Assembly: GCA_964016885.1 (NCBI GenBank)
Contig: OZ024741.1
Span: 218,178,001 to 218,242,000, forward strand
Source of the DNA: Eledone cirrhosa
Lineage: Eukaryota
Direction: 5' to 3'
DNA length: 64,000 bases
The position numbers were made by a program, and so were the translations under genes. This document shows, piece after piece, positions 3,001 to 61,524 of this stretch; the first letter of the stretch is position 1, and the number at the start of each line of letters is the position of its first letter. A model generated the notes under the pieces. That model made no database searches. It saw only the letters and a list, made by a program, of their open reading frames with translations, and had not been told where the DNA came from.

Positions 3001-3056
3001 TTCCATGACGACCCCAAGCCACGCGCATTTATGCTGCCTATTCTGAGTGAGGTCAT
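1..3056 (-). pseudogene. ORF2 (APE endonuclease + reverse transcriptase) of copy A, with frameshifts and stops
   Basis: ORF-track pieces 2784-3056, 1601-2890, 257-1573 and 211-444 are colinear with ORF2 of copy D. Confidence 0.93.
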
Positions 3057-3090
3057 GTTGAAAACGAGTGGAAAAGATGGGAAAGACCAC

Positions 3091-4262
3091 TTACCTTACT
3101 TCTCCTAGAAGAAGGATGGATTCTCCATCCTTCCCACTGCTTGTGACCTCCTCCGGAAGGATGTCCTTATAAATCCTCCTGGAGAGTGTTTGTCGGAAGT
3201 CTGCGATGTCTTTGGGGAATTTTTGTTTTAGTGTCGTGTACGTTTTCTGTGTGATGCGAGTGATTTGTATGTGTGGACGTGGTGTGAACTTTTGGGTTGT
3301 TGTGTAGTCTTTTTCTGTGATGCTGGTGTTGTGTTGCATGTAGTGTAATAATTGGTTGTTCAAATTTAATGCTGTGTAGTGTGTATCGTTTTGGTTGTTT
3401 TGTTTTGTTTGCGTTTGTTGTGGATTTGTTTCTGTTACGCTTTTTGGTGACTTTTGTGGTGTTGGCGTTAATGATGGTGATGGTGTTGGTGTTTGTGGTG
3501 ATGGGGTTGGTGATCCTGGTGTGGATGGTGGCATATCTGTCCGAACTTTTTTGTTTGATAATTTATTTGTTTCCCTCTGTATTTTGTTTTTGGAGGGGGA
3601 AGGAAGAGAATTTTTTCTTTTTTGGTTTCTTTTTTTCTTTTTTCCTGATACCGTTTTCCACTCCTCGTCGTCACAATCTGTCTCCAGTTGCGATAAGCCG
3701 GGGAGTGGAAAATCCTCCACAGGCGTTGGTTTTGGTTGTGGCGTGGTGGATGGTGTAGGCGCTGTACCCATCTTTCTTTACCATTCTTTTGGCTTCTTCT
3801 AATTCCCCCTGAGTTACCTGGATCGCTTCGCACGTTTTTGCTACTCTGGCAAAACTCAGGGTGGTTTTCTTAATTTCATTGTTGCTGTTGTTGTTATCGT
3901 TAATTTTGTTATTGTTAATTTTAGTTTCAGTTGTGGTGGTGGTGGCGTCAGTGGTGTTCGGTGTGGAAGAGTTCATTTTGGTTGAATTCATTTCGATATC
4001 ACGAGTTAATTTATTTTTTTCTTTTGTTTCTGTTGTCGCTGTGGTGGGGGGGGGGGGTTGTCGCTGTGGTAGTGGTGGTGGGGGTGGCGGCTTTAACACC
4101 TGCAGTCATTGGTAATGGCGGGAAATGAATGTCTGGCTGAGACAAATTTAAAATATTGCTACTGCTTATATTTTTAGTGTTGGCAAACGTAGTAATATTT
4201 ACAATGGTGGTGTCGGTGTGAGGTGTTAGTTTGTGAGGAAGGTGTGGCTCTGAGCCGGCCAT
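3091..4262 (-). pseudogene. ORF1 of copy A, frameshifted, lacking the central zinc-knuckle region
   Basis: N-rich N-terminus, SFARVAK..ELEEAKRMV block similar to C/D ORF1, EEWKTVSGKKKK basic block, FPKDIADFR C-terminus. Confidence 0.8.
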
Positions 4263-5149
4263 GATTTTTCAAAGAAATTTTTTTTTTTGTTTGTTTGATA
4301 ATTATAAAAAGTTTAAATTTTGGGCTCAAGGCCCCAATATTTTTGAGTGTCTTTTTCAGAAATCAATGTATGTGCACTTATATACAGTTAACAATAAAAA
4401 TGTTCCATGAATGGCAATTTTAAACAACTGAAAATAACAAACCTTTGCGGAGCTCACGATGATACGATTTACTACGTAGGTCGCCAATAATAATAATAAT
4501 AATAATAATAAATCATCAGTATACGGATCCTATACTTCATCCCTATAACAATTGTGTTTGCTTCAAGCGAGGGAGTGAGGGACTCTATGCGGTTGCTTGA
4601 CCTGCTGGAGGCGACGGCCAAATTTCTTTCAGGTCACACCACAACATCCTGTATTGAAGAAGAACTCTTTTATCGATAGCTTCGGGCCCCAGTTTGGTGA
4701 CAATCCTGTACTAAACGGTGGTGGGTTCCTGGTGGAAATATGTTCCGGGATTGTGTGAACGAACTTTCGATTTGACATTTTGTTGGTGATGGCGCTTGCC
4801 ACGTGTATTGTGAACGGATCATATACTTGTGTCTTTTTCCTCCACAGTCTCTGATACTTCTCGGAATTCTCCAGTTTTGGCTTCCTCTCTTCGGTGCCTT
4901 AGCATCTTTCGACTCCAACTTTGTACTTTTGTCGAATTTGCCGTTTGGAAGGCGTGCGCGCGCACACACACACACGGCATCCATCTCGGCACTTCTTCGT
5001 TTCAGTGCATCTCAGGACCTCAGGGCCCCTTCCGCAATTTCCTCTCTCCTCTCTCCTTCATCTTTGTGACCCACTGCTTTAAAAAAAAAAAAAGAAATTC
5101 CCTTTTTCACCCTTTTTTTCTTCTCTTTCCTCCTTCACTGTTATCGAAC

Positions 5150-13775: not shown

Positions 13776-13954
13776 ATTGACAGTGTCGGTAGAAGGTCGG
13801 ACGCCATGCTTTCCAGCACAGAGTTACGCCCCTTTATGATCTGAGTTCTAATCCCGCCGAGGTTAACTTTGCCTTTCATCCTTACGAAGTCGATAAAATA
13901 AAGTACCAGTAAAGCACTGGGGTAATTGCTGGCCTTGTGCCAATAGTAGAAACA

Positions 13955-14002: not shown

Positions 14003-14208
14003 GGTCTAAGCAGACGTATTTTGATCGCTCACAGTAAGTCGCTTTATTTGCCTGTTAAAATTATTTGTTGTTAAATATTTCTTGTTGTGTAAGGGATATA
14101 AGCCCTTAGACTTTTCCCCGTGAAGGGGAAAGTATAATATTTGGGCCTTTTGGCCCAAATATTTGAACTTTTTTTACATGTTAAAAAATTTACGAAGAAA
14201 AAAAAAAC

Positions 14209-16049
14209 ATGGCTGAGCCACGCCCGCCAGCGATATGTTTGCTGTCGTGCGACAACGACGTAGAAGTTGAGAGGAGCGCTACAGCGAAATTAACACACAT
14301 TGATAACACAAACACCACCACAAACAATGTAAACAAAGACACCAATGATACCAATGAGAACTCTAATTTTGAAAAAAATGACAGTAACAGCGACAACGAA
14401 AATACAGATAACAAAAAAAAAATAAATAACAAATACAACAACAATATCAACACCACTAATATGAAAACAAATAGCGACAACACCAACAGCAACAATACCA
14501 ACTGCACCGAGAACAACAGTGGCAACAAAGACAACAATGATAACAGCGACAGTGATAACAACAACACCAACAAGAACAACGACAACGACAACAACACCCC
14601 CAACGAAAACAAGAAGAACACTTTCGTTGCGGCAGCAGCAAAAAAGAGGCCATGCTTCAACATGGACCTCTCAAACAAAGATGAAAAGTTGGCCCAGGTA
14701 TGGAAGCTCATCAAGCAAGAGAAAACCTGGGCCAACTTAACTGTCCCGGTAGAAGCTATTGAGACAATGGAGCGCAGAACGGTGCATTACAGATGCATCT
14801 CAGCACAAACCAAAAGGGCAGTTTTAATCCCACAAGAAGATGTCGAAGTCGCCCTGAGATGCATCAGAGAAGACACCGAATACATAGAGAGGGGCAGACA
14901 GTACGGCACCATTTCGGTGTTGTTCAAGTCAGAAGCCCTCGCTATGAAACACGCTATGACTCCTTGCAAAACCAGCAAGGTCATAATGTACCCCTCCCAC
15001 ATGAGGACTGGTCCGGGGTTGACCTGGAGATCCTTCTCCAGATCAGACCCGAGAATGTGAAGACAATCCCGGACCACATCCGCCTTCAGAATGGGACGGT
15101 CATTCACATTATGACCGAAGGCAAAAGGCCGCAGTGTTTTGTTTGTGAGGAAAAAACCCATTTGCCAGCCTTCTGCCCTCAACTGCTGAAAGAGGCAAGG
15201 GGTCGAAAGGCTCCACTGCTGCCGACGCCGGGGCGAGGACCACAACCAACACCGGCACCGGCAAAACCACCAACAACAACACCAATAGAAAGACCACCAC
15301 CAACATTGACCACCAAAGGGGGAAACGAGGAAAACTATCAAATTCCTCCTCCCCCAAAAATCACACACCAATAAAACCATAAACTTACAGACACAGACCC
15401 CTCATCTACGAGTAGTGAAGATGAGGGAAAACCAAAATCCCCCAAAATACAAAAAGGAAACACAAAAAGAAAGAAAAAAACTCAACAAAGCACAAAATCA
15501 CCCACAATAAAAAACGCAGACACCACCCACGCAAACATCTCTCCAATAATACCAACATCAACACCACCATCACCATCACCATCACCATCACCAGAATCCC
15601 CCAAACGCAAACAACCTAAACAGACGCAAGAACAAATATACACACAAACATCTGAAACCACAGACACCGCACTCACAACAAACACAGATACAACCGAAAC
15701 AACACCACCACAGCCACGCAAACAAATAAAATCACACCAACAAAACATACAAAACTTCGTGCTCGTCAGGAGGGCCAACAAGAAACTGATGCCCCTCGTA
15801 GCACGAAGTGAAAATATACAAAAAGAGGAGGACATTTTTAAATCGAGCACATTTCGCGTGCTGGAAGATTTGATTCTGGTGCGAATGTCGCTCGATATAT
15901 TCAAAGAAATACGAGGCAGCTTTCCTCGGGACGTGGGAACCCCGAACGTAAAACCCACTTCAAGACTTTTAAAGGGGTTCCAAAAAGAAACCCCACCAAC
16001 TATGGAGGTCGAACAACCCGACCTTCACAAGAGCCCGGAAGGTAAGTAA
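14209..16049 (+). pseudogene. ORF1 of copy B (N-rich N-terminus, CCHC knuckle), frameshifted
   Basis: ORF-track pieces 14209-15060, 14793-15374 and 15759-16049. Confidence 0.85.
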
Positions 16050-16080
16050 ACCTTCCTCTCTCTTTTTTTAACCTGCCAAC

Positions 16081-19000
16081 ATGGCCGTATTAAGAGTAGG
16101 ATGTTTAAATGTTCGAGGCCTGGGATCGTCCTGGAAGCAGGGTCACCTGCTCAACGACCTCAGGTCTATAGAAATGGATGTAATTGCCGTCAGCGAGACC
16201 AGGATTTCCGACACGCGCGCACTAGCCCCCATTTTCGACGACTATCAGATCTTTGCATCTGTTAGCCGGCCGGGAATGGGAGGCGGGGTGGCAGTGCTGT
16301 TTAGGAAAGGCCTGGATCTCGAGGTAAGGTCGATCTTCCGGGACCCGGACGGGAAGTTGGTGGTCCTGGACGTGAACAATAACGAAGGTGGTGCCTTTAG
16401 ACTGGTGGCCGTCTATGCTCCTACTGGGGCAGGACGGCCGGACTTCTTTAGACGTCTGGAAGCCTTTCTGGGTACGTCTCGCCCTTTACTGTTAGCGGGG
16501 GACTGGAACGGCATCTTAGACGCACGCTGGGACTGTGTAGGAGTATCCGATAGGAGCGGGGGGTGCAAAAGCCTCAAGAACCTGATCAGCCAGTTCCAAC
16601 TGTCTGACAGGTACCGACTAGATTTCCCTAATGCGCCAGTGTGGACCTGGGCTAACCGCATAGGGTCATCTAGATCGTATATAGACAGGATATTCATTAG
16701 GAAAATAGACAGAAATAGTGTAAGCTGTCCACGTTTTGAAACGGTCGCCTATTCAGATCACAAGTTTGTGATCTGTATGGTCGACCTAGATAAAATGTGT
16801 AGGTTAGGACCTGGTTACTGGAAGCTAAACATGTCATTTCCGGCACGTAAGGCTTACAGGGACCAGGTCAACAATTTAGTTAAGAAAAAGTTGACAGGGG
16901 GAATCGTCAACAATAGATGGTGGGGGGGGCTCTCAAAAGAGAGATTAGAGTAATGTCGATAGAGTTTAGCAAAGAAGTAGCATTAGAGAAAAATAGAAAG
17001 GAGGGAGAGTTGGTAGATAAGTTAGACGAGGCTATTGGTAGTGGCATTGCAACTGATGTGCTAGCGGCGAGAATGGCATTAGACCATTTCTTCAATGCGA
17101 AACACGAAGGTTGCATTGTCAGAGCTAAGGCGCGTGCTCTGAGAAACGAGGGTACCAAAGCTGTTCGATGGGCCCGCGTGGCAGAGGCGCAGCGTGGTAA
17201 TAAAACCAAGATTCGGTCTTTGACGGACCGAGACGGTCTCGAGCTGAACGATTCCAAGAGGATGTGTGAGGCCTTTCGCCAACATTTTGCTCGGTTGTTC
17301 GGGGGAAGTGGCGGGTCAGAGATGGTGGCGGACTTCAGTCCCTACCTCGATGGCTTGCCGCAACTCTCGACGGCTGACGCTGGGCGCTGCGAAAGGCCAA
17401 TTACTTCAGCCGAGATTCAGGATGCCCTTGTAGGCTGCATGAGGCGCAAGTCACCCGGTTTGGATGGTCTGCCCTACGAGCTTTACGTAAATATGCCAGA
17501 CTTGTTCTCCAATCTCCTCGAAGCCCTCTACTGCAACTGGCAGCAAAACGGGAGTATTCCCAGTTCTGTGAGCCGGGGCGTAGTGACGCTGATAAGGAAA
17601 GACGAGAACAAGAGGGACGGACACATTAGACAATTTCAGGCCCATAACTCTGCTCAACACAGAGGTTAAGATTTTGGCCAGGATGTTAGCGAAGAGGTTG
17701 GCGCTTGTCGTCGGGGATTTGGTTGGGGAGGCGCAAACTTGCGCAATCCCAACCAGGTCCATACGCGACAACCTCCACCTAATGCGATACATCATAGAGA
17801 GGGTAGGGTGTAAACCTGGCTTCGGTGGGGCTCTGATCAATTTAGATCAATCGAAAGCATTCGATAGGGTCGACCATTGGTACCTGGAGGCTGTCCTCAA
17901 GGCGGCTGGCTTCGGCCCCATCTTCAGAAGCTGGATCGCTGCAATGCACAGCGGCACCTGCTCGATGGTCAAAATTAATGGCCACCTCTCGGAACCGTTT
18001 CAGGTCTCCCGATCGGTCCGTCAAGGGTGCCCTCTCTTCTCCCTTATGTACGTATTGACTCTCGAGCCTTTACTGCGGAAGCTGGAGCTGTTGCAGGGCA
18101 TCCCGCTCAAACCGGGACACGGAAAGGCTCTGTCGGCTTATGCGGACGACATCACCGTGATGGTGTCGGACACCTCAGAAATCGAGGTGGTCGGCAACTT
18201 ATTGGAGGAATATGAAAGGTTGACGGGAGCAAAACTTAACCCGGAAAAGTCAGTAGGCTTGCAACTCGGCACCTGGAGAGGCAAGTCCATGCCGTCCAAC
18301 AGCGTCGTTAGGCGCTGTACGGACGGACGGACCGGTAAAGTAGCTAGGAGTTTGGTTCGGGCCAGACTTCCAGGTGGATAGGAATTGGGACGAGGTGACG
18401 GGCAGGGTAGTCAGTCTCACCCAGAAATGGGCTGGGATAAAGCTATCACTGAAAGGTCGGGCGGAGGTGGCGAACGCGTACATCGCGTCCGTCATCTACT
18501 ACCGTCTGACTGTCGTCCCTTGCCCCCGTTCGCGCTTCGCCATCTTGGAGCGGCTCCTCTTCAAATTCTTGTGGAGGGGTCAGGTTCCGCTGGTGAGGCG
18601 GTCCATCTGCTGCCAGCACCCTCTACGTGGAGGGCTGGGCATGCCGTGGCTAATGATGCGCAGGCACGCGCTGAGGCTGCGGCATCTCCAGATATTCTGC
18701 CTAAACGGTGAACAGGTGTGGTCGCCGTTTGTCAGACGGGCCTTTCTGCAGCTCGTTTCTTTGACTGAGTTGCAGTCCTGGGTCAAGAAGAGACCGAGAC
18801 TGGGTGACTGGCATCTGGAATTTTGCCAGGCACTCACTGCCCTCTACCAGGCGGGCAATGCGGTCAGTAGAACTTCCACTCTCGAGTTCTATAGAGGATT
18901 AGTGGTGGGCAAGTGCGACGACGCACTCGGAGCGGCTCTGGGAGTCAACGAAGTCGAACTAACCAGTCTGTACCGGAGGACTTTCGAGCCAGGGACGATG

Positions 19001-19514
19001 GATAATTTCCAAAAATCCCTCGCTTGGCAGTGCTACCGGGGTGCACTACCGGTTCGAGATAAACTCTACAGGCACGGAAGTGCTATCAGACGGACCTGCC
19101 CGAGATGCGCGCAGAGCGACGAAACCGTTCTGCACGCACTCGTCCAGTGTCCGTGCATTACTGACTTGTGGAGTTATGTTGAACAGCTGTTGTTGCGTGT
19201 AGAACGGATCCGGCTATCGGCCGAGTCCATAGTGAAGATCGACCCGCCGCCTTCTTTTGGCCAGGAAGGGCAGGCAATTTTCCTCTGTCTGGTGGCAGTA
19301 GCGAAAGAGGTTGTATGGTGGATGAGGTTGAAAGGACTGAAGACAGACACTTTTCTCTTCGGCCAATCCCTCATCAACTTTTTCAAGTTTCACTTGGAAA
19401 GGAAGGTGAGGGTGGAGAGAGAAGTGCTCCCCCCCCAGTACATTTGCTGAAAGGTGGGTGAATGTGGCGAGAATGGCCCGTGTGAGTGGGCCTACTCTGG
19501 TCATGCGGCTGTAG
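16081..19514 (+). pseudogene. ORF2 of copy B (APE-RT-zf-RVT), frameshifted
   Basis: NVRGL, GDWN, YSDH, KSPGLDGLP, QGCPL, YADD, CPRCAQSDETVLHALVQC. Confidence 0.93.
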
Positions 19515-19803
19515 GTAGGTAAATTTGAAGAGGAGAGGGGTGCCCTTCCAAAGTTCTCTCGAAGCGTCGGGTCGTTCAGGACTGGTGGGGTACCTGAGCG
19601 AACCCTAGGTGGTCATCCCCCCTATTGGGAATGTTTTCTTGTTGTAATTTTCTTGTTACTTTATTGTTACTTTGTTATTGTTACTTTGTTTATTCATATT
19701 GTTTACTCGATTTTTCTGTAAAACCCCACTGTCCCAGTCTTTTGTATTGTCCCCTATATGTCGGCCCTTGTGGCCAATAAATGAAATCATTATTATTATT
19801 ATT

Positions 19804-22800
19804 GAATGCTATGGTTGACGGAGGCTCGGCTCTGTAAGGTATTGTAAATTTTGACCACTATAACAATTGTAAATTGTTTAAAACTGTAACCATATTGTAG
19901 ACAAAAACACCTTCCTCCTCGTGAGAGGGGTTTTTCTGCCCGTTATTTGGCCCTTCGGGGTTAAATAACCGCTTATTGGGGTTTTGTGCCCAATATTTAT
20001 TTTAAACAAAAAAACAACATGGCCACGAAAAAGAATTTTCATAGGTCACTCCCACTCATTCCGTCTTCTTCCTCAATCGTCACTACAGCAGAGAGAAGAT
20101 TGTCTCTCTCCCTCCTTTCTCTAAATGTGTCTCTCTCCCTCCCTCCCTTCTCTTTTGCAAGCGACGCCAGTAAAGAAAAATAGTTTACAAAATCACGTGA
20201 AAAACATGGAAGATTTCTCCACGACGACGACGACGAAAAAGGTGTGCGGGAAATACGAAAACCCATTTCATTCGTCTGACGTCATGAATAATAGCAGTAG
20301 CAGCCGTAATAACAGCAGCAGCAGCAATAGTGACGAGGAAAACAACGGTAGCAGCCGAAACAGCATCAGCGGCAGCATAAACAACAACAGCATTAGCAGC
20401 AACAGCAACAACAACAGCAGCAGCAGCAACAACAACAACAACCACAGCAACAGCGGCGGCGGCAGTCGTAGTACCTGCAGCAACAACAAAAGTAACAGCA
20501 GCTCTGACGACAACAACAACAACAGTAGCAAAGAAAAACCAATCTCGTTTGCAGGTATCGCAAAGAACCTGGAAACCATCCTCATAACAAATGAGGAATT
20601 AGAGGAAGCGAAGAAGATGGTGACGAAAACCGGACACCGAGCAATCTGCAAGGTAGCCGAAAATTTTTTCGAAACCCAACAGCACTGTACGGTCACGTAC
20701 CGTACAGTAAGAACAAAATCCCATAGAGTTGAAAGAGCCACAGAGGCTCAAATACAAAAAGCCTTAGGGTCTGTGTGGCAGCGTAAAACGCATATCACCC
20801 GAGGCAAGAAATATGCCACCGTAGACGTGCTTTTTGCCACACCCCAGGAGGCAAAGGCTCAATCCTTAGTGACCCTAAGAAGCGAGGAAATGGTGTTGGT
20901 GCCCTCCTACTGCGGGCAAAAAATTGTGAGGGTCAAACTGACCCCCCCCCCCCCCCGGGATGGCCTCTTCTTGGCTGGCCGCGTCTGTTCTCTTTGGAAT
21001 CGAGGACAAAACAACTGTACTGCAAGTACAGAAAGAGTAAGAGAAGATTGGATCGGCACCTCCATTGAGATGTTAATCCAAACCAACCAGGAGTGCATCG
21101 AAGCTATCCCGGATGTGATAGACTTCGATAACGGCACTCAACTGCCCATAAGTGTTGAGGGCAAACGCCCGAAATGCTTTCGCTGTGGATCGAAGACTCA
21201 CCTCAGGGCCTTCTGCAACGAGAAGACCCTGAGAAAGGAGAAAACCCCCTCCTTCCGAATCCGGCTCCACTGCTACCAGTAACAGGACAAGCGGCAACCA
21301 GGAACGATAGGTCCGTGGCACCCATACCCACGCCACGGAAATCAAGAACAGCAGCAGCAGTGGAAGTATTAACAACAACAACAGTAATACCAAATGCAGC
21401 TGCCACAGAGACTCCACTGCAAACATCACCAACAACAACAAGTGAAAGAGTGGAGCTGGTACCACTCCCCGACCTCACAGAATCAGACATGGAGTGTGAG
21501 GTGGGAGAGGGATGGCAAAAGGTCGTAAGAAGGCACAAACGCAGAAGCAGCGCATCGTCGCCTTCGAAAAGGGAGGAAAGAAATGAGAAAAGGGTAAAGG
21601 CTACTGCAAAGAGACTCACAGCAGCAACATCACTAACACCATCACCAGCCACACTAGCACCACCATCACCACCGGTGACAACCCCACCGCCAACAACAAC
21701 AACACCTTCAAAACCACCACCACAAGCAGCAACATCGCAAACACAACAACAAAACACACACACCCAGCAACAACGACAAGAAAATAGCAGAACCCCACCC
21801 CCAGAAAAACAAATGCACGGCAATAAATACACACAACAAGAAACTAATGACTTACATAATTGAACACACAGACATTTCACAGCACGACTACATAATACCA
21901 GCACCAATCAAAACGCCAACGAACATAGGACTGCTAAAAATAGCACAGAAACAATACACAAACATTAAAACGAAATTCCCCAACGCAGTTGGTGATTTCA
22001 GAGACCTAGGAGGGACTCTCAACCGGAGAGTATATTCGGACATACTCATAGAAGAGCCGACGACCAGCCGAAGGGACGATTCAACGGTCCCTTCACCAGA
22101 AATCAAGTGAAAAGGGATGGAGAAACCATCCTTCCTCTACGAAAAGTACGGTAAGTGGTCTTTCCCATCTTTTCCACTCTATTTTAAACATGACCTCACT
22201 CAGAATAGGCAGCATAAATGCGCGTGGCTTGGGGTCGTCATGGAAGCAGGGTCACCTGCTCAACGATCTCAGGTCACTAAACATAGATGTAGTGGCCTTC
22301 AGCGAGACCAGAATCTCCGAAGCACGGGCCTTAGCACCGATCTTCGGCGGCTACGATGTGTACGCATCTCCCAGCCGTCCTGGATCGGGGAAGGAGTTGC
22401 TGTGCTTTTTCGGAGAGGTTTGGATCTCGCCATACGGGCCATCTTCCTGGACCCAGAGGGTAAGTTGGTGGTGCTGGACGTGACCAGCGGAGACGAGCAA
22501 GCTTTCAGGCTAGTGGCCGTCTATGCGCTGACAGGAGCAGGGCGGCCTGATTTCTTCCGGCGTCTGGAGACCTTTCTTGGAACGTCCCGCTCTTTAGTGT
22601 TAGTGGGCGACTGGAACGGGATCTTAGATGCACGCTGGGACTGTGTGGGATTAGCGGATAGGGGAGTAGGGTGCAAGAGCCTCACCAACCTGCTCAGGCG
22701 TTTTGAACTGTCTGACAGGTACTGATTGGATTTCCCGAATGTGCCAATGTGGACTTGGACAAATCGCATATGGTCATCCAGATCATATCTAGATAGAGTA

Positions 22801-25800
22801 TTTTGTAGGGAAATAGATAGGTCTAGCATAGGCTGTCCACAATTCAAGATAGTCAGCTACACGGACCACAAATTCGTGATCTGTGTGCTTGACTTAGATA
22901 GGCTTCATAGACGAGGACCCGGCTACTGGAAGCTAAACGCGTCCTTACCAGCGCGCAAGGCCTACAGAGAGCGGATTAGCGAACTAGTTAAGCGGCCGTT
23001 GACGGGGGCCATCGTCAACAACAAGTGGTGGTTTGCTCTGAAAAGAGCGATTAGAATAAAATTCATTAGGTTTAGTAAGGCTTTAGCAATAAAGAAAAAT
23101 AGAGCAGAGGGAGAACTAGTTAGAAAATTAGACGAGGCGCTTAGCAAAGGCATCGCGACCGACGTGCTTACGGCGAAATTGGCCCTTGACCAATTCTTCA
23201 ATGCAAAGCACGAAGGCTGCGTTGTCAGAGCTAGGGTGCGTGCTCTCAGACACGAGGGGACGAAAGCCGTTCAATGGGCCCGAGTGGCGGAGGCGCGTCG
23301 TGGAAACAAAGCCACGATCCGGTCTTTGGAGGACCACGACAGGCGCATGCTACTCGATCCCGGGCAAATGTGTGAAGCTTTTCAGCGACACTTCGCTCAG
23401 CTGTTCGGGGGCAGCGGTGGGCCGGGTCGAGGGATGGACTTTAGTGTCTACCTCGACGGACTGCCGCGGCTCTCGGCCACTGAGGCGGAGTGTTGCGAAA
23501 AGCCGATAACAGGCGCTGAAGTACGGGAGGCTGCACAAGGGGTAAATCGCCTGGTTTGGATGGTCTGCCTTATGAACTTTACGTACAGATGCCAGACTTG
23601 TTCGGAGGCCTCTTGGCGGACGTCTACTGAAACTGGCAACAGAATGGGAGTATTCCCAGCTCTGTGAGCCGAGGTGCGGTGGCACTGCTGAGAAAGGATC
23701 CGAACAAGGGGGAAAACATAGATAATTTCAGGCTCATAACTCTGCTAAACACAGAGTTCAAGATTTTGGCCAAGGTGCAAGCAAAGAGGTTGGCGCTTGT
23801 CGTTGGTGTCTGCGCCATTCCCGACAGATCCATCCACGACAACCTCCACCTCATGCGATACATCGTAGAGAGGGTAGCTAGGGAACCTGGCACGGGTGGG
23901 TCCTTGATCAATTTAGATCAGTCGAAAGCTTTCGATAGGGTCGACCATCGTTACCTAGCGGCAGTCCTGAGGGCGGCTGGCTTTGGGCCCGTCTTCAGAG
24001 GCTGGATCGCTGCCATGCACAGCGACATCTGCTCTGTGGTGAGAGTGAACGGTCACCTTTCGGAACCGTTCAACATCATGCGCTCGGTCCGCCAAGGATG
24101 TCCCCTCTCGTTCATCTTGTACGTATTGACTCTCGAGCCATTACTGCACAAACTGGAGACGTTGAGGGGGGTCCCGCGCGAACTAGGATGCGGAAGTTCC
24201 GTGTCAGCATATTCGGACGATGTCACCGTAGTGGTGTCGAACGCCAAACACATCGAGGCGATCGGCACTACACTAAGAGAATACGAAGCGGTGACAGGAG
24301 CAATGATCAACCAGGAAAAGTCAGTGGGCCTGCAGCTCAGCACCTGGAGAGGCAGGTCCATGCCGTCCAACAGCGTCGTCGGGCGCTGGACGGACGGACC
24401 GGTTAAATTGCTTGGGGTCTGGTTCGGTCCGGAACTCCAGACGGACAAAAACTGGGACGAGGTGACGAGCAGAGTGGCTTCTCTCACCCAGAAATGGGCC
24501 GAGAGGAAGCTATCCCTGAAAGGTCGAGCGGAGGTGGCTAACGCGTACATCTCGTCCGTCATCTACTACCGCCTGACCGTCGTACCTTGTCCTAAGCCCC
24601 GCCTGACTGCGCTGGAGCGTTTGCTCTTTCGCTTCTTGTGGAAGGGACGCGCTCCGATGGTCAGGCGGTCCATCTGCTGTCAACACCCGCTACGTGGAGG
24701 ACTGGGCATGCCGTGGCTGATGATGCGCAGACACGCGCTCAGGCTACAACATCTCCACCTCTTCCTCGACGGTGATCAGGTGTGGTCGCCGTTTGCTAGA
24801 CACGTTTTTCCCCAGCTCGTCTCCTTGACGGAGCTGCAGTCCTGGGTCAAGCGAAGACCGAGAGGGAGCGCTTAGAGACTGGAATGTCTTCAGGCACTCA
24901 CAGCCCTCGACCAATCGGGCAATGTGATCGGTGGAAACTCCACCTTGGCGTTCTATAGGGGATTAGTGGAGGGTAAGAGCGACGACATACTTAGAGAAAC
25001 TCTAGGCGTCGACGAAAATCAACTAGCCAATCTCTTCGGAAGGACTTTCGGGCCGGGGCCTATGGACAACTTCCAGAAATCCCTGGCCTGGCAGTGCTAC
25101 CGGGGTGCTTTGCCAGTTCGGGATAAACTCTACAGGCATGGAGGTGCCGTCAGCTGGGCATGTCAGAGATGCGCACAGGGCGACGAAACCGTTCTGCACG
25201 CACTCGTCCAGTGTCCGAGCATTGCTGACTTGTGGGTTTATGTCGAACACCTGCTGTCACGTGTAGGACGGATTCAGCTATCAGCTGAGTCCATCGTGAG
25301 GATTACCCCGCCCTCTTCCTTTAGCCGGGAAGGGCAGGCAGTTTTTATCTGTCTGGTGGCCATGGCGAAAGAGATAGTATGGTGGACACGTTTGAAAGGG
25401 CTGAAGACGAGCACTTACCTCTTCGGTGATGCCCTGATTAACTTTTTCAAATTTCATTTGAAAAGGAAAATCAGGGTAGAGAGGGAAGTGCTCTCTTCCC
25501 AGCATTTTGTTGAAAGATGGGTGAGAGAAGCAAGTATGGCCCGAATGAATGGGCCTTCTCTGAGTATGTGTCTGTAAATTAAAGGTGGAAAACTGGGAGA
25601 GGGCACTTGACCTGGTGGTCAGGGTCACTGTGGTCTTTTAATGGGCTTTCTCCACAAATGTCCCTCGGAAGTCTCCCCCCTATTGGGGAATTTTTCTTTG
25701 TTATTTTATTACATCCTCTGTTTTTTACACGCAGAAATGCCCATTTGTACCGTCCTGTATTGTCCTGTACTGTCCTTAATGTCTACTTTATGTAAACCCT

Positions 25801-25818
25801 TGTGGTCAATAAAGAAAA

Positions 25819-25855
<37 letters not shown>
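19804..25855 (+). mobile_element. Tx1/L1-clade element, copy C (full length, disabled)
   Basis: Begins immediately after the (ATT)n tail of B; ORF1 about 20019-22154, ORF2 22190-25577 fragmented; ends AATAAA..(ATT)n. Confidence 0.95.
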
Positions 25856-26070
25856 GAATGCCATGGTTGACGGAGGCTCGGCTCTGTAAGGTATAGTAAT
25901 TTTTAACCGTTAAAACAATTGTAAATTGTTTAAAACTTGAACCAAATTGTTGATAAAGACACCCTCCTCCTCGTGAGAGGGGTCTTTCTGTCCGTTATTT
26001 GGCCCTTCGGGGTTAAATAATCAGTTATTGGGGTTTTGTACCCAAAATTTCATTTTAAACAAAAAACAAC

Positions 26071-28167
26071 ATGGCTACGAAAAAGAAATTTCATACGTCA
26101 CTCCCACTCATTCCGTCTTCTTCTTCCTCAATCATCACTACAGCAGAGAGAAGATTGTCTCTCTCCCTCCCTTCTTTAAATGTATCTCTCTCCCTCCCTT
26201 CTCTTTCGCAAGTGACGAAAGAAAAGAAAAGTCTCGTGCAAAGCGTGCAAGGTTTCTCCACGACGACGACGACAGCGACGAAACAGGTGTGCGGGAAATA
26301 CGAAAACCCAGTTCATTCGTCTGACGTCAGGAATAATAGCAGTAGCAGCCGTAATAACAACAGCAACAGTGACAATGAAAACAACAGTAGCAGCCGCAAC
26401 AGCATCACCAGCAGCATAAACAACAACAGCATTAGCAGCAGCAACACCAACAACAACCACAGCAACAGCGGCGGAGGCAGTAGTCGTAGTACCTGCAGCA
26501 ACAACAAAAGTACCAGCAGCTCTGACGACAACAACAACAGCAGAGAAAAACCAATCTCATTTGCAGGTATTGCGAAAAACTTGGAAACAATCCTCATAAC
26601 AAATGAGGAATTAGAGGAAGCGAAGAAGATGGTGACAAAGAACGGACACCGAGCAATCTGCAAGGCAGCGAAAAATTTTTTCGAAACCCAAGAGCACTGT
26701 ACGGTCACGTACCGTACAGTAAGTACAAAATCCCGTAGGGTGGAAAGAGCCACAGAGGCCCAAATACAAAAAGCCTTGGGGTCTGTGTGGCAGAGGAAAA
26801 CGCACATCACCCGAGGCAAAAAATACGCCACCGTAGACGTACTTTTTGCCACACCCCAGGAGGCAAAGGCCCAATCAGTAGTGACCCTAAGGAGCGAGGA
26901 AATGGTGTTGGTGCCCTCCTACTGCGGGCAAAAAATTGTGAGGGTCAAACTGACCCACGTCCCCCCCGGAATGACCCCTTCTTGGCTGGCCGCGTCTGTC
27001 CTCGTCGGAATCGAGGACAAAACAACTGTACTGCAAGTACAGAAAAAAGTAAGAGAAGATTGGGTCGGCTCCTCCATTGAGATGCTAATCCAAACCAACC
27101 AGGAGTGCATCGAAGCTATCCCGGATGTGATAGACTTCGATAACGGCACTCAACTGCCCATAAGTGTTGAGGGCAAACGCCCGAAATGCTTTCGCTGTGG
27201 ATCGAAGACTCACCTCAGGGCCTTCTGCAACGAGAAGACCCTGAGAAAGGAGAAAACCCCCCTCCTTCCGAATCCGGCTCCACGGCTACCAGCAACAGGA
27301 CAAGCGGCAACCAGGAACGATAGGTCCGTGGCACCCATACCCACTCCACGGAAATCAAAGACAGCAGCAGCAGTGGAAATATTAACAACAACAACAGCAA
27401 TACCAAATGCAGCTGCAACAGAGACTCCAGTGCAAACATCACCAACAACAACAAGTGAAAGAGTGGAGCTGGTACCCCTCCCCGACCTTACAGAATCAGA
27501 CATGGAGTGTGAGGTGGGAGAGGGATGGCAAAAGGTCGCAAGAAGGCACAAACGCAGAAGCAGCGCATCGTCGCCTTTGAAAAGGGAGGAAAGAAATGAG
27601 AAAAGGGTAAAGTCTACTGCAAAGAGACCCACAGCAGCAACACCACCAACACCATCACCACCCACACCAGCACCACCATCACCACCGGCGACAACCCCAC
27701 CGCCAACAACACCTTCAACACCACCACCACAAGCACCAACATCGCAAACACAACAACAAAACACACACACCCAGCAACAACGACAAGAAAATAGCAGAAC
27801 CACACCCCACCCCCAGAAAAACAAATGCACGGCAATAAACACACACAACAAGAAACGAATGACTTACATAATTGAACACACAGACATTTCACAACAGGAC
27901 TACATAATACCAGCACCAATCAAAACGCCAACTAACATAAGACTGCTAAAAATAGCACAGAAACAATACACAAACATTAAAACGAAATTCCCCAACGCAG
28001 TTGGTGATTTCAGGGACCTAGGAGGAACCATCAATCGAAGAGTATATTCAGACATTCTCTTAGAAGACCCGACGACCAGCCGAAGGGACGATTCAACGGT
28101 CCCTTCACCAGACGATCAAGTGAAAAGGGATGTAAAAACCATCCCTCCTCTACCAAAAGTACGGTAA
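26071..28167 (+). CDS. ORF1p, gag-like nucleic-acid-binding protein (698 aa)
   Basis: Open frame; N/S-rich N-terminus, central folded domain, CFRCGSKTHLRAFC (Cx2Cx4Hx4C), P/T-rich linker, basic RRHKRR. Confidence 0.9.
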   Translation: MATKKKFHTSLPLIPSSSSSIITTAERRLSLSLPSLNVSLSLPSLSQVTKEKKSLVQSVQGFSTTTTTATKQVCGKYENPVHSSDVRNNSSSSRNNNSNSDNENNSSSRNSITSSINNNSISSSNTNNNHSNSGGGSSRSTCSNNKSTSSSDDNNNSREKPISFAGIAKNLETILITNEELEEAKKMVTKNGHRAICKAAKNFFETQEHCTVTYRTVSTKSRRVERATEAQIQKALGSVWQRKTHITRGKKYATVDVLFATPQEAKAQSVVTLRSEEMVLVPSYCGQKIVRVKLTHVPPGMTPSWLAASVLVGIEDKTTVLQVQKKVREDWVGSSIEMLIQTNQECIEAIPDVIDFDNGTQLPISVEGKRPKCFRCGSKTHLRAFCNEKTLRKEKTPLLPNPAPRLPATGQAATRNDRSVAPIPTPRKSKTAAAVEILTTTTAIPNAAATETPVQTSPTTTSERVELVPLPDLTESDMECEVGEGWQKVARRHKRRSSASSPLKREERNEKRVKSTAKRPTAATPPTPSPPTPAPPSPPATTPPPTTPSTPPPQAPTSQTQQQNTHTQQQRQENSRTTPHPQKNKCTAINTHNKKRMTYIIEHTDISQQDYIIPAPIKTPTNIRLLKIAQKQYTNIKTKFPNAVGDFRDLGGTINRRVYSDILLEDPTTSRRDDSTVPSPDDQVKRDVKTIPPLPKVR

Positions 28168-28202
28168 GTGGTCTTTCCCATCTTTTCCACTCTATTTTAA
28201 AC

Positions 28203-31200
28203 ATGACCTCACTCAGAATAGGCAGCATAAATGCGCGTGGCTTGGGGTCGTCATGGAAGCAGGGTCACCTGCTCAACGACCTCAGGACACTAAACATAGA
28301 TGTAGTGGCCATCAGCGAGACCAGAATCTCCGAGGCACGGGCCTTCGCACCGATCTTCGGCGGCTACGATGTGTACGCATCTCCCAGCCGTCCTGGATCG
28401 GGTGGAGGAGTTGCTGTGCTTTTTCGGAGAGGTTTGGATCTCGCCATACGGGCCATCTTTCTGGACCCAGAGGGAAAGCTGGTGGTGCTGGACGTGACCA
28501 GCGGAGACGGGCAAGCTTTCAGGCTAGTGGCCGTCTATGCCCCGACAGGAGCAGGGCGGCCTGATTTCTTCCGGCGTCTGGAGACGTCCCGCTCTTTAGT
28601 GTTAGTGGGCGACTGGAACGGGATCTTAGATGCACGCTGGGACTGTGTGGGATTAGCGGATAGGGGTGGAGGGTGCAAGAGCCTCACCAACCTGCTCAGG
28701 CGTTTTGAACTGTCTGACAGGTACCGATTGGATTTCCCGAATGTGCCAATGTGGACTTGGACAAACCGCATAGGGTCATCCAGATCATATCTAGATAGAG
28801 TATTTTGTAGGGAAATAGATAGGTCTAGCATAGGCTGTCCACAATTCAAGATAGTCAGCTACACGGACCACAAATTCGTGACCTGTGTGCTTGACTTAGA
28901 TAGGCTTCATAGACGAGGACCCGGCTACTGGAAGCTAAACGCGTCCTTACCAGCGCGCAAGGCCTACAGAGACCGGATTAGCGAACTAGTTAAGCGGGCG
29001 TTGACGGGGGCCATCGTCAACAACAAGTGGTGGTTTGCTCTGAAAAGAGCGATTAGAATAGAATCGATTAGGTTTAGTAAGGCTTTAGCAATAGAGAAAA
29101 ATAGAGCAGAGGGAGAACTAGTTAAAAAATTAGACGAGGCGCTTAGCAAAGGCATTGCGACCGACGTGCTTGCGGCGAAATTGGCCCTTGACCAATTCTT
29201 CAATGCAAAGCACGAAGGCTGCGTTGTCAGAGCTAGGGTGCGTGCTCTCAGACACGAGGGGACGAAAGCCGTTCAATGGGCCCGAGTGGCGGAGGCGCGT
29301 CGTGGCAACAAAGCCACGATCCGGTCTTTGGTGGACCACGACGGGCGCATGCTACTCGATCCCGGGCAAATGTGTGAAGCTTTTCAGCGACACTTCGCTC
29401 AGCTGTTCGGGGGAAGCGGGGGGCCGGGTAGAGGGATGGACTTTAGTGTCTACCTCGACGGACTGCCGCGGCTCTCGGCCACTGAGGCGAAGTGTTGCGA
29501 AAAGCCGATAACAGCCGCTGAAGTAAGGGAGGCAATGACTGGCTGCACAAGGGGTAAATCGCCTGGTTTGGATGGTCTGCCCTATGAACTTTACGTACAG
29601 ATGCCAGACTTGTTCGGAGGCCTCTTGGCGGACGTCTACTGCAACTGGCAACAGAACGGGAGAATTCCCAGTTCTGTGAGCCGAGGAGCGGTGGCACTGC
29701 TGAGAAAGGATCCGAACAAGGGGGATAACATAGACAATTTCCGGCCCATAACTCTGCTAAACACAGAGTTTAAGATTTTGGCCAAGGTGCTAGCAAAGAG
29801 GTTGGCGCTTGTCGTTGGTGGTCTGGTGGGAGAGGCGCAGACATGCGCCATTCCCGACAGATCCATCCACGACAACCTCCACCTCATGCGATACATCGTA
29901 GAGAGGGTAGCTAGGGAACCTGGCACGGGTGGGTCCTTGATCAGTTTAGATCAGTCGAAAGCTTTCGATAGGGTCGACCATCGTTACCTAGCGGCAGTCC
30001 TGAGGGCGGCTGGCTTTGGGCCCGTCTTCAGAGGCTGGATCGCTGCCATGCACAGCGACATCTGCTCTGTGGTGAGAGTGAACGGTCACCTGTCGGAACC
30101 GTTCAACATCATGCGCTCGGTCCGCCAAGGATGTCCCCTCTCGTCCCTCTTGTACGTATTGACTCTCGAGCCATTACTGCACAAACTGGAGACGTTGAGG
30201 GGAGTCCCGCGCGAACTAGGATGCGGAAGATCCGTGTCAGCATATGCGGACGATGTCACCGTAGTGGTGTCGAACGCCAAACACATCGAGGCGATCGGCA
30301 CTACACTAAGAGAATACGAAGCGGTGACAGGAGCAATGATCAACCAGGAAAAGTCAGTGGGCCTGCAGCTCGGCACCTGGAGAGGCAGGTCCATGCCGTC
30401 CAACAGCGTCGTCGGGCGCTGGACGGATGGACCGGTTAAATTGCTAGGGGTCTGGTTCGGTCCGGACCTGCAGACGGACAAAAACTGGGACGAGGTGACG
30501 AGCAGGGTGGCTTCTCTCACCCAGAAATGGGCGGAGAGGAAGCTATCCCTGAAAGGTCGAGCGGAGGTGGCTAACGCGTACATCGCGTCTGTCATCTGCT
30601 ACCGCCTAACCGTCGTACCTTGTCCTAAGCCTCGCCTGACTGCGCTGGAGCGTTTGCTCTTTCGCTTTTTGTGGAAGGGACGTGCTCCGATGGTCAGGCG
30701 GTCCATCTGTTGTCAACACCCGCTACGTGGAGGGCTGGGCATGCCGTGGCTGATGATGCGCAGGCACGCGCTCAGGCTACGACATCTCCACCTCTTCCTC
30801 GACGGTGATCAGGTGTGGTCGCCGTTTGCTAGACGCGTTTTTCCCCAGCTCGTTTCCTTGACGGAGCTGCAGTCCTGGGTCAAGCGAAGACCGAGAGGGA
30901 GCGCTTAGAGACTGGAATGTCTTCAGGCGCTCACAGCCCTCGACCAATCGGGCAATGTGATCGGTGGAAACTCCACCTCGGCGTTCTATAGAGGATTAGT
31001 GGAGGGGAAGAGCGACGACGTACTTGGGGAAACTCTAGGCGTCGACGAAAATCAACTAGCCAATCTCTTCGGAAGAACTTTCGGGCCAGGGCCTATGGAC
31101 AACTTCCAGAAATCTCTGGCCTGGCAGTGCTACCGAGGAGCCTTGCCAGTTCGGGATAAACTCTACAGGCATGGAGGTGCCGTCAGCCGGGCATGTCCGA

Positions 31201-31610
31201 GATGCGCGCAGGGCGACGAAACCGTCCTGCACGCACTCGTCCAGTGTCCGAAAATTGCTGACTTGTGGGTTTATGTCGAACACCTGCTGTCGCGTTTAGG
31301 ACGGATCCAGCTATCATCTGAGTCTATCGTGAGGATTGCCCCGCCCTCCTCCTTTAGCCGGGAAGGGCAGGCAGTTTTTATCTGTCTGGTGGCCATGGCG
31401 AAAGAGATAGTATGGTGGACACGTTTGAAAGGGCTGAAGACGAGCACTTACCTCTTCGGTGATGCTCTGATTGACTTTTTCAAATTTCATTTGAAAAGGA
31501 AAATCAGAGTAGAGAAGGAAGTGCTCTCTTCCCAGCATTTTGTTGAAAGATGGGTGAGAGAAGCAAGAATGGCCCGAGTGAATGGGCCGACTCTGAGTAT
31601 ATATCTGTAA
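28203..31610 (+). CDS. ORF2p APE endonuclease/reverse transcriptase/zf-RVT (1135 codons) with one in-frame TAG at 30906-30908
   Basis: ORFs 28203-30908 and 30957-31610 are in the same frame; a 12-nt in-frame deletion (FLGT) is present in the endonuclease relative to other copies. Confidence 0.9.
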
Positions 31611-31870
31611 ACTAAAGGTGGAAAACTGGGAGAGGGCACTTGCCTTGGTGGTCAGGGTCATTGTGGCTTTTTACTGGGCTTTCTCCACAAATGTCCCTCG
31701 GAAGTCTCCCCCCTATTGGGGAATTTTTCATTGTTATTTTCATTGTTATTTTTGTTACATCCTCTGTTTTTGTTTTTTTACACGCAGAAATGCCCATTTG
31801 TACCGTCCTGCATTGTCCTGCACTGTCCTTAATGTCTACTTTATGTAAACCCTTGTGGTTAATAAAGAAA

Positions 31871-31910
<40 letters not shown>

Positions 31911-31911: not shown

Positions 31912-32164
31912 ATAATTGTTTCTACCTTTTGGCACAAGGCCAGCAATTACCCAGTACATTACTGGCGGTAGATTGGAAGTATCGGTAGAGTGTCGGACGC
32001 TATGCTTTCCAGCATAGTTACGTCCCTTTACGATCTGAGTTCAAATCCCGCCGAGGTTGACTTTGCCTTTCATCCTTACGGGGTCGATAAAATAAAGTAC
32101 CAGTAATGCACTGGGTAATTGCTGACCTTGTGCCTAAAGTAGAAACAATTATTATTATTATTAT
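31911..32164 (+). mobile_element. SINE (31966-32164) preceded by an inverted copy of a SINE 3' end (31911-31965)
   Basis: gagttcaaatcc B box, same core and tail as the 13776 SINE; 31911-31965 is the reverse complement of ccagtaatg..ggccttgtgcc..agaaacaattatt. Confidence 0.85.
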
Positions 32165-35100
32165 CGGTCTGTTCGGACGCTTTTTGCTCGCTCCCAGTAA
32201 GTCGCTTTATTTGCCTGTTAAAATTTTTTTGTTGTTAAATATTTCTTGTTGTGTAAGGGATATAAGCCCTTAGACATTGCCCTGTGAAGGGGAAAGTATA
32301 ATATTTGTGCCAAAAGGCCCAAATATTTGAACATTTTACTTTAAAAAAAAAAAGTTTAAAAAGACAAAACATGGCTGAGCAACGCCCCCCACCCCACCCC
32401 AGCAATATGTTTGCTGTCGTCTGACAACGGCGTAAAAGTTGAGAGGAGGGTTAGTGAAATTCATACAGCAAACACCACCACAAACAACGTGAACAAAGAC
32501 AACAACACATTTTGAAAAAATTACCACACCAACTACAACAATAACAGCGTCAACCAAAATACAGACAACAGAAAAAAATGACAACAAATGCAACAACGAT
32601 ATTAAACACCACTAACAAGAAAATAAACAACGACAACACCAACAGCAACAATACAAATTGCACCGAAAACAACAACAACGGTGGCACCAAAAACACAACC
32701 AACTACAACAGTGATAACAGCAACAACACCAACAACACCATTTGTAGCAGTAGCAACCGCAACAACACCAACAACAAGACCAGTAGCGGCAGTAATAATG
32801 GTGTGGCCCGAAATATAGAAACAGTGCTAGTCGCAGAGGAGGAGATGGCAGTCGCAAGAGCCATGGCATCGAGAAACGACAACAGAGTTTCCTTGAAACC
32901 TCCACCCGATTTCTTCAAAGACCAGCAACTGTGCACGGGACCAGCAACTGTGCACGGGATCCGACATGGAGTGTGAGGCGGGAGGGAAGTGGCAAACGGT
33001 CTGCCTCAAAAAAGAAAAAAAAAAGAAAAAAAACCCTAGCTTCACCCTTCAAAAGCTAAGGCAGACAAATAGGGGTAAAGACTGCAAGGAGACTTGCAGC
33101 AACACCACCACCATCACCACCAACAACCACCACACCGCCACCAGCATCGCCAAAAACACCAACATCGCAAACACAACAAAACACACACACCCAACAGCAA
33201 CAACAAGAAAACAGCAAGAAAATTGCCCCTCCCCCCAAAAAGTACACAGCCATAAACATGGCAAATAAAGAACTCCTACAACATATAAACAGCACACAGA
33301 CATCACAGAAAAAAAACTACTACACCCCACCAACACCAAGAACTCTACCGACAAACATAAGCATCATTGAAATCTCAATAGAACATTACACATTTTTAAA
33401 GCAAAAATTCCCCAACGCAGTTGGGGACTTCAGAGGGTCGGTTACCAAGAGGATATACACCAATATCTTCTTGGAAACACCCATGACCAGCTAAAGGGAC
33501 GGTTCTACGGTCCCTTCACCACACGATCAAGGTAAGTAATCCTTTCTCACTTACCCCGTTTCTCATCCAATATGGCAATACTTAGAAATGGAGTCATCTC
33601 GGAAGCAGGGTCACCTGCTCAACGACCTCAGGTCACTAAACATAGATGTGGTGGCCATCAGCGAGACCAGAATCTCCGAAGCACGAGCCTTCGCACCGAT
33701 CTTCGGCGGCTACGATGTATACGCATCTCCCAGCCGTCCAGGATCGGGGGGAGGGGTTGCCGTGCTTTTTCGGAGAGGCTTGGACCCAGAAGATAAGTCG
33801 GTAGTGCTGGACGTGACCGGCAGCGAAGGCAATGCTTTCAGGCTAGTAGCCGTCTACACCCCAACAGGGGAAGGACTCTCAGATTTCTTCAGGGGTCTAG
33901 AGACCTTTCTTGGAACGTCCCGCTCTTTAGTGTTAATCGGCAACTGGAACGGTATCTTAGATGCACACTGGGATTATGTGGGGCTAGTAGACGGGGCAGG
34001 AGGGTGTAAAAGCCTCAGCAACCTGCTCGGACGTTTTGAACTGTCTGACAGGTATATACTGGATTATCAGAATGTGCCAATGTGGACATGGGCAAACCGC
34101 ATCGGGTCATCCAGATCGTATTTGGATAGGGTATTCTGTAGGGAAACAGATAAGGCTAGTGTAGGTTGTCCACAATTTAAAGTAGTGGACTACACGCACC
34201 ATAAATTTGTGATCTGTGAAGTTGACTTAGATAGACTCCATAGGAAAGGGCCCGGCTACTGGAAGCTGAACGCGTCGTTCCCGGCGCACAAAGCTTACAG
34301 AGACCGGATTAGCGAATTAGTTAAGCCTGCGTTGACGGGTGCAATCGTTAACAAAGGTGGTGGTTTACCCTGAAAAGGGCTATTAGAGTAGAATCGATAA
34401 GGTTTAACAAAGGAGTAGTGATAGAGGAAAATAGAGTAGAGGGAGAGTTAGTTAGAAAGCTAGAAGAGGCGTTTAGGACAGGAAACGCAACCGACGTGCT
34501 TGCGGCGAGATTGGCACTCGACCAATTCTTCAACGCAAAGCATGAAGGCTGCGTTGTCAGAGATAGAGCGCGTGCTCTAAGACACGAGGGGACGAAAGCC
34601 GTTCAATGGGCCCGGGTGGTGGAGGCGCGACGTGGCAACACGTCCACAATTCGGTCTTTGCCTGATAAAAACGGGCGCATGTTGCTCGAACCGGAGCAGA
34701 TGTGTGCGGCTTTTCAACAGCACTTTGCTCAATTGTTCGGGAGCGGCGGCGGGCCGGATGGGAGTATGGACTTCGGTGCATACCTCGACGGACTGCGAAA
34801 AGCCGATAACAGCAGGTGAAATGCAGGGCGCGATGTCTGACTGCATGAGGGGTAAATCGCCAGGTTTGGATGGTCTGCCCTACGGGCTTTATGCGTATAT
34901 GCCAGACTTGTTCGGCGACCTCTTGGCAGATGTCTACTGCAAGTGGCAGCAGAACGGGAGCACTCCCAGTTTTGTGAGCCGGGGAGCGGTGGCGCTGCTG
35001 AGAAAAGACCGGATCAAGGGGGACGTTAAAGACAACTTCAGGCCCATAACTCTGCTAAACGCAGAGTTTAAGATTTTGGCCAAGGTGTTAGCAAAGAGAT

Positions 35101-37127: not shown

Positions 37128-37180
<53 letters not shown>
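32165..37180 (+). mobile_element. Tx1/L1-clade element, copy E (chimeric, internally deleted, disabled)
   Basis: 5'UTR homologous to B; ORF1 about 32371-33540 shortened; ORF2 33572-36868 fragmented; AATAAA..(ATT)n tail. Confidence 0.93.
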
Positions 37181-38245: not shown

Positions 38246-38256
38246 ATATATATATA

Positions 38257-38776: not shown

Positions 38777-38828
<52 letters not shown>

Positions 38829-61480: not shown

Positions 61481-61524
61481 TTTAATAACCTCTGTCATTT
61501 TCGTTTACAGTTTTATATACATCA

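Follow-up and report, generated by a model that had tools for sequence, protein, structure and literature searches.

A predicted 3' hairpin in a microsatellite-targeting Tx1-like LINE clade of octopods and, in variant form, in an abundant SINE of Eledone cirrhosa

Here we report that an octopod clade of Tx1-like LINEs, which insert at microsatellites, ends in a conserved predicted hairpin, and that a very abundant SINE ends in a variant of it. On balance, we favor a reading in which the SINE is copied by the ORF2 protein of the ATT-tailed LINE subfamilies, probably through binding of the hairpin. We hold the partnership between SINE and LINE with considerable confidence and, if it is granted, regard dependence on the hairpin as probable. 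The window from which these observations start is a 64,000-nt stretch of the Eledone cirrhosa genome (assembly GCA_964016885.1, contig OZ024741.1, positions 218,178,001 to 218,242,000).

All four complete LINE 3' ends in the window (copies B to E) carry a CUUGU loop on a stem of 3-4 bp just 5' of the ATT tail (Table 1); downstream of each hairpin come AATAAA, a spacer rich in A and then (ATT)n. The stem-loops that a first-pass annotation had described in these LINE copies and in three SINE copies are all present, and a minus-strand SINE fragment has a further one. When both strands were scanned, CTTGT occurred at 115 sites in the window, nine of them closed by at least three Watson-Crick pairs; eight of these nine stand immediately 5' of an ATT tail, in LINE copies B, C, D and E and in four SINE copies. 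Across the 3.0-Gb genome the LINE-tail pattern has 8,053 exact matches and the SINE-tail pattern 177,349, and the reversed control of either has none. The placement of the hairpin is therefore not due to chance. Copies B and E are 72-80% identical to C and D, and C and D are 94.5% identical to each other, so that the four LINE copies represent three independent stems, not four.

Table 1. Tx1-like LINE copies, SINE copies and LINE 3' hairpins, in coordinates of the window
Feature	Positions	Strand	Remarks
Tx1-like LINE copy A	1..4486	-	(ATT)8 flanks 5' end; 3' end beyond the window
Short-type SINE	13776..13954	+	hairpin 13930-13942 (loop at 13934), then (ATT)16
Tx1-like LINE copy B	14003..19788	+	apparently full length, frameshifted; begins right after the SINE's ATT tract
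3' hairpin, copy B	19763..19775	+	loop CUUGU from 19767; GC stem of 4 Watson-Crick pairs; AATAAA at 19776, (ATT)5 at 19789-19803
Tx1-like LINE copy C	19804..25819	+	head-to-tail, 3' of B's ATT tract
3' hairpin, copy C	25795..25807	+	loop from 25799; 3 Watson-Crick pairs; (ATT)12 at 25820-25855
Tx1-like LINE copy D	25856..31872	+	ORF1 26059-28167, one CCHC knuckle; ORF2 28008-31610
3' hairpin, copy D	31848..31860	+	loop from 31852; 4 Watson-Crick pairs, two of them A-U; (ATT)12 from 31873
SINE 3' fragment, 48 nt	31918..31965	-	hairpin intact (loop at 31938); back to back with the full copy
Full SINE copy	31971..32147	+	one mismatch within the stem (at about 32127)
Tx1-like LINE copy E	32164..37128	+	degraded; placed after a SINE's ATT tract
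3' hairpin, copy E	37104..37116	+	loop from 37108; 3 Watson-Crick pairs; (ATT)17 at 37129-37180
Two tandem SINE copies	55415..55790	+	hairpins 55533-55545 and 55752-55764 (loops at 55537 and 55756); a third, degenerate copy follows to about 55985
5'-truncated SINE	61366..61481	+	target duplication 10 bp

Copies B to E form a head-to-tail array (14003-37128) whose joints are ATT tracts and SINE copies, and the 5' ends of all five LINE copies in the window lie on ATT tracts. Genome-wide, the 8,053 exact LINE tails run on as ATTATT, against 254 that break after ATTAT. Taken together, these observations identify the LINE as site-specific, inserting at (ATT)n. In the window (31918-32147) and at one further locus, an opposite-strand 3' SINE fragment lies directly 5' of another SINE, beside a Tx1 tail; it could reflect a 5' inversion by twin priming or a separate insertion. 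Within the (AAT)n tails of two LINE families of R4/Dong type, Tx1 copies and SINEs were, on inspection, very often found in antisense orientation, and two repeat-targeting LINE clades thereby build nested arrays from opposite strands of one microsatellite. Other repeats in the window are Penelope-like elements with RT and GIY-YIG domains (38250-43243 and 56534-58185), the first within long inverted repeats (38254-38826 with 42666-43238, 98%), an RTE-type LINE remnant ending in (GAT)n (8414-9836), and two long simple satellites, a 2.6-kb 5/10-mer array (10829-13411) and a 1.7-kb ACC-rich array with a 123-nt higher-order period (46721-48400).

The LINE ORF2 carries an APE endonuclease (PF03372), a reverse transcriptase (RT, PF00078) and a zf-RVT domain (PF13966); in copy D all three are present in a frame with one in-frame stop. 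Its best PDB match is human L1 ORF2p (E 4e-52; R2, E 1e-21), and a search of the ESM Atlas returned generic APE and RT clusters only. ORF1 of copy D has no Pfam match and a single C-x2-C-x4-H-x4-C motif; a CCHC knuckle in ORF1 is a feature of the Tx1 clade. The nearest named protein is from Argonauta hians (73%), pointing to an octopod host. A quick tree of 71 RT rows places it in one clade with this genome's LINE copies (support 100), set apart from CR1, RTE and Dong rows with support 99, the L1-superclade backbone around it being without resolution. RT identity is 38-41% to a Keno-type group that includes an element with U2 snRNA on both sides, versus 29-37% to other metagenomic L1-like rows, the comparison rows being metagenomic with no named Tx1 among them. 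On these grounds the LINE belongs to the L1 superclade, and the L1/Tx1 identity first proposed for it holds in the form that, within the superclade, it appears Tx1-like. At least three unrelated 5' ends and ORF1 types (A; B and E; C and D) sit on closely related ORF2s, and each 5' UTR of about 190 nt (at 14003, 19804, 25856, 32164 and, on the minus strand, 4486) has a small GC hairpin shortly 5' of the start codon. Five metagenome contigs hold L1-superclade elements adjoining U2 snRNA or 5S rRNA sequence, as in Keno-type and 5S-targeting elements.

The first-pass annotation had called the CUUGU loop invariant. In a survey of the clade whose copies were found through their protein, with loci not picked by the hairpin pattern, 39 3' ends could be anchored and eight matches had no usable 3' end. 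Of the 25 ATT-tailed rows, 21 have CUUGU as the loop and 21 a stem of at least three pairs, one mis-anchored row having been corrected by eye (otherwise 20 and 20). From the 14 remaining rows we dropped three that were anchored on an internal AATAAT and one of ATT type with a broken tail. The 10 left, whose tails are (ATCT)n or (AT)n, form part of a sister lineage; the stem holds in nine of them and the loop is CUUGU in three, the other loops being CCUGU, CUGGU, CUAGU, UUUGU and UUUAU, several of them repeated subfamily states. A fixed loop is thus found in the window and in the ATT-tailed subfamilies but not in the (ATCT)n lineage, and the loop is lineage-specific rather than invariant. The hairpin as such is retained across subfamilies at 67-100% RT identity, the (ATCT)n lineage included. 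Copy B groups with the (ATCT)n-tailed lineage in the quick tree (support 95), and copies of that lineage were seen stacked one upon another within ATCT tracts, their loop varying by subfamily while the stem stays the same. Farther afield, 80 metagenomic relatives are mostly 23-36% identical (one 42%), and the displayed 3' regions of the 21 inspected, several of them cut short, contain no such hairpin; given these distant relatives, we rejected deep conservation of the hairpin outside octopods. Another group of relatives, at 48-54% identity, is known from protein without DNA context.

Covariation in the stem was assessed in 16 hand-picked representatives (14 Tx1, 2 SINE), in which 89% of cells are paired versus 75.7% after shuffling and the named register beats all slid registers. 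The innermost pair is C-G in all 16; at the second position the 14 Tx1 ends have C-G and both SINEs have G-C; the third pair is G-C in 12 representatives, A-U in three and G-U in one; and the outer pair is unpaired in seven. RNAalifold, applied to 13 Tx1 ends, returned exactly this 3-bp hairpin as the consensus and nothing else, and one 13-mer of the (ATCT)n lineage differs from that of the SINE only at both partners of the second pair. The covariation claimed for the stem is therefore real in that compensatory changes and a consensus structure exist, but it amounts to about three independent events, including the C-G/G-C flip in the SINE. Since the two inner pairs are constant among Tx1, conservation may concern the sequence and not the structure. 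Variation at 5% or more among assembled contigs was absent from the hairpin of copy D versus 12 sites in the preceding 237 nt of UTR, the expected count for the hairpin being below 1.

Predicted folding differs among copies and contexts. In the whole 3' UTR the pair probability of the hairpin is 0.96-1.0 in B, 0.58-0.61 in C, about 0.5 in D and 0.87-0.90 in E, and in 86-nt segments 12 of 15 Tx1 ends reach at least 0.75, the hairpin being poorly populated in the other three. SINE segments of the same length gave 0.57, 0.01 and 0.0 for the short type and 0.70 and 0.78 for the long type. Inside the whole short SINE RNA the hairpin is weakly predicted, as a minor fold (probability 0.17-0.18), its 5' arm pairing with the body instead, and in isolation it is weak (-0.8 to -6.6 kcal/mol). 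A longer lower stem, formed by a U-rich arm and the AAUAAA region, appears in 10 of 15 single Tx1 folds but is missing from the consensus structure, and we do not claim it.

In the short-type SINE, about 185 nt long, a tRNA-like head is followed by a conserved body and then by the hairpin tail; a pyrimidine-rich linker distinguishes a longer form. The head has motifs that, judged by eye against the consensus, we take to be A- and B-box-like, and neither ARAGORN nor Rfam found a tRNA in it. In a sample of 169 copies found through the body alone, with loci not picked by the SINE hairpin pattern, the hairpin tail is present in 147. Conservation in these tails is 92% or higher at each of the 11 hairpin sites, none of which is polymorphic, while downstream the majority base falls below 89% at 5 of 13 sites (p 0.04). 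Some of the other 22 copies are sister SINEs whose tails differ, being RTE-like in one and (CATA)n-terminated in another, and tails therefore behave as exchangeable modules in this SINE family. For the (CATA)n family no partner was found, and the RTE-like 3' end, followed by (GAT)n, was seen in one copy. A SINE pattern with free stem positions (121,357 matches) revealed no alternative paired subfamily among the 100 matches listed.

The insertion footprint points to the LINE that moves the SINE. We applied one method to the SINE, Tx1 and a CR1-type family over 1.68 Mb of DNA, a duplication being at least 8 bp at copies with a mapped 5' junction. Duplications flank 96 of 169 SINE copies; 66 are not pure ATT, with a median of 15.5 bp, and 44 of these begin with ATTAT (3.1 in shuffled pairs). 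For Tx1 they flank 21 of 45 copies, in a sample enriched for short tails since 30 loci were chosen for such tails so that duplications would be visible; eight, one of them a tandem-array artefact, are not pure ATT, with a median of 15 bp, and seven begin with ATTAT (control 0.6). The same method found duplications in 0 of 42 copies of the CR1-type family, which is ATT-tailed. Fisher tests gave p = 2e-13 for SINE versus CR1, 0.012 for Tx1 (7/45) versus CR1 (0/42) and 0.24 for SINE versus Tx1, about ten Tx1 and six CR1 "junctions" being internal breaks or later insertions and not true 5' ends. A looser first pass over 49 CR1 copies gave a 40-nt duplication at one of them; three further matches, 10-16 nt long, lie in simple or tandem repeats.

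The hairpin was also sought by eye in other sampled LINE 3' ends, which we assigned to clades by known motifs and by their similarity to seeds rather than by means of a library. It was found in none of them (two R4/Dong ends with (AAT)n, an RTE end with (GAT)n, four CR1 types and an I-like end with (CAA)n), and none matches the SINE tail better than Tx1 does. The SINE and Tx1 3' ends share the loop, its closing pair, the end of the A-rich spacer and ATT over about 30 nt, with many differences, and examples inspected within Dong (AAT)n tails have the two in the same orientation. The partnership first proposed from the window is thus well founded: the common duplication signature, missing from the CR1 rival, and the lack of the hairpin in any other sampled LINE end make the SINE very likely a Tx1 passenger.

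The ATT tail itself we rejected as evidence of partnership: the ATT of the SINE is for the most part target sequence, and (ATT)n also terminates the CR1-type family. That the hairpin resemblance arose by chance and the CR1-type family moves the SINE is very improbable: the family is young, with 2,835 exact tail matches, and CR1 is among the commonest SINE partners in the accessible part of a published compilation (PMC3747384, Table 1), but its (ATT)n stands behind a different hairpin, with another stem and a 6-nt loop, and the duplications present in the SINE are absent from its 42 copies, which largely refutes this explanation. One ATTATT site in the CR1-type 3' UTR has been hit repeatedly by SINEs (five loci), and one copy of the family has an internal 3' duplication.

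It is also improbable, if less so, that the SINE's actual partner is a less common or extinct LINE, of another Tx1/L1 lineage or another clade, which matches the SINE tail exactly, the sampled Tx1 elements being its relatives or look-alikes. Both the G-C pair of the SINE and its spacer are missing from every sampled Tx1, and our sampling fell short of the 47 LINE families that, going by the accessible part of the annotation, have recently been active in O. vulgaris (PMC13282606). The SINE tail occurs with a non-SINE flank in only 211 matches, heterogeneous among the 100 listed, in a test blind to any LINE sharing the seven bases 5' of the SINE stem. Against such a partner, all 30 inspected SINE-tail loci have SINE sequence 5' of the tail, and this Tx1 clade is the commonest RT type (4 of 40) in 40 evenly spaced 10-kb stretches. 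By copy identity all three families, SINE, Tx1 and CR1-type, include young copies, and those of SINE and Tx1 are interleaved.

The main rival to hairpin-dependent copying keeps the same Tx1 element as the mover. In relaxed mobilization any RNA ending in AUUAU would be primed at an ATTAT nick; the SINE hairpin would be a relic of tail capture, and the LINE hairpin would be kept for another job, such as presenting AAUAAA for 3' processing. We consider this unlikely, although it accords with several observations: the hairpin abuts AATAAA in every Tx1 subfamily, in the SINE it competes with pairing to the body, its loop tolerates change in the (ATCT)n lineage, and Tx1-Mar is thought to move SINEU without a common tail (PMC4494074, accessible text). 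On the other side, the SINE lacks AATAAA and still keeps loop and stem, with one pair compensated, and its subfamily variation avoids the hairpin, a weak indication. Stringent recognition is a plausible reading.

Based on these observations, we propose that hairpin-guided copying may proceed as follows. The endonuclease would nick the strand reading ATAAT at an ATTAT site, as duplications starting with ATTAT suggest, and the freed DNA end would anneal to AUUAU at the RNA 3' end, in keeping with the overlap of tail and duplication in the copies; the SINE's short ATT "tail" would then be largely target sequence. By analogy with ZfL2 and UnaL2, ORF2 may hold the RNA by the stem and pyrimidine loop 12-16 nt upstream. 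A second-strand cut about 15 bp away would give the duplication whose footprint we observed. SINE fragments comprising little beyond hairpin and tail carry their own duplications (four loci), which indicates that copying starts at the 3' end. The SINE likely took its last 30 nt or so from an ancestral member of the LINE clade and would later have flipped one stem pair from C-G to G-C.

Several features recall known systems, which we cite from the accessible parts of the sources. The first-pass contrast with relaxed mammalian L1 is incomplete, as stringent-looking L1-clade/SINE pairs have been published for monocots and Chlamydomonas (PMC3472496). As in LINE1-1_ZM with ZmSINE2/3 and L1-1_CR with SINEX-3_CR (PMC3472496, PMC3747384), an L1-superclade LINE and a tRNA-type or, here, tRNA-like SINE share a short predicted 3' hairpin, with a conserved loop and compensatory stem changes; stringency in the plant and algal pairs is likewise argued from sequence (PMC3472496). 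Unlike those pairs (PMC3472496), the host here is an animal, the LINE is Tx1-like and microsatellite-targeting with an (ATT)n tail that equals its target, the shared stretch is about 30 nt versus 50-80 nt, and the stem has only 3-4 bp. By comparison, the classic TS/RTE pair is nearly identical over about 100 nt (PMC3747384); our 30 nt contain several differences. A 3' stem-loop followed by a short tandem repeat is also found in UnaL2/UnaSINE and in ZfL2-1/ZfL2-2 (PMC4176376). In ZfL2 the stem is recognized as structure and the loop gives family specificity (PMC4176376), a model that fits the constant stem and lineage-specific loops seen here. UnaL2 and ZfL2 belong to the L2 clade and have been assayed (PMC4176376), while our ORF2 is L1-like and described from sequence.

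Among Tx1 elements, the crocodilian Tx1-Mar was inferred to be the mover of SINEU because the two have targets in common, and no LINE was found to have the 3' end of SINEU-1 (Kojima 2015, PMC4494074). That case resembles ours in its Tx1-SINE link through target preference and in tandem stacking at the target; it differs in that SINEU has snRNA heads and poly(A) tails, whereas our SINE shares the LINE's 3' end itself (PMC4494074). Insertion into microsatellites is known from Kibi at (TC)n, Koshi at (TTC)n and crocodilian Tx1 families at (TTCC)n/(TTTC)n (PMC4494074); the targets here are instead (ATT)n and, in the sister lineage, (ATCT)n. The L1-clade tails in Ohshima's pair table, in the accessible text of PMC3747384, number three, two from maize and one from Chlamydomonas, and the table contains no pair involving Tx1 or a mollusc. 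Tx1 does not occur in the accessible text of Kojima 2018 (PMC5786205) or of PMC11481361, and the O. vulgaris repeat annotation, in which SINEs make up 11.6% of the genome and are mostly unclassified, names no SINE partners in its accessible part (PMC13282606). We found no tail-sharing Tx1-SINE pair in the accessible literature searched; Repbase, Dfam, SINEBase, Ohshima & Okada 1994 and supplements could hold one.

In the sources accessible to us, the case for stringent 3' recognition within the L1 superclade comes solely from plants and algae, and the sole Tx1-SINE partnership in print rests on shared targets and not on a shared tail. We put forward, with the scales about level, an animal LINE of the L1/Tx1 superclade that still recognizes its template RNA through a minimal pentaloop hairpin of 3 bp and for which the AUU tail used in priming is also the DNA target; in this way it would have raised a SINE to over 170,000 copies. 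Its sister lineages, with loop and target repeat both changed, would, as part of the same evenly weighted reading, offer a natural series for shifts of L1-type elements between stringent and relaxed recognition. If this is true, a young, high-copy animal case would make a stringent ancestry of the relaxed mammalian L1 directly testable. LINEs that combine site specificity with a very short element for RNA recognition would also be of interest as insertion tools, and the partnership names the probable engine of a very abundant octopod repeat.
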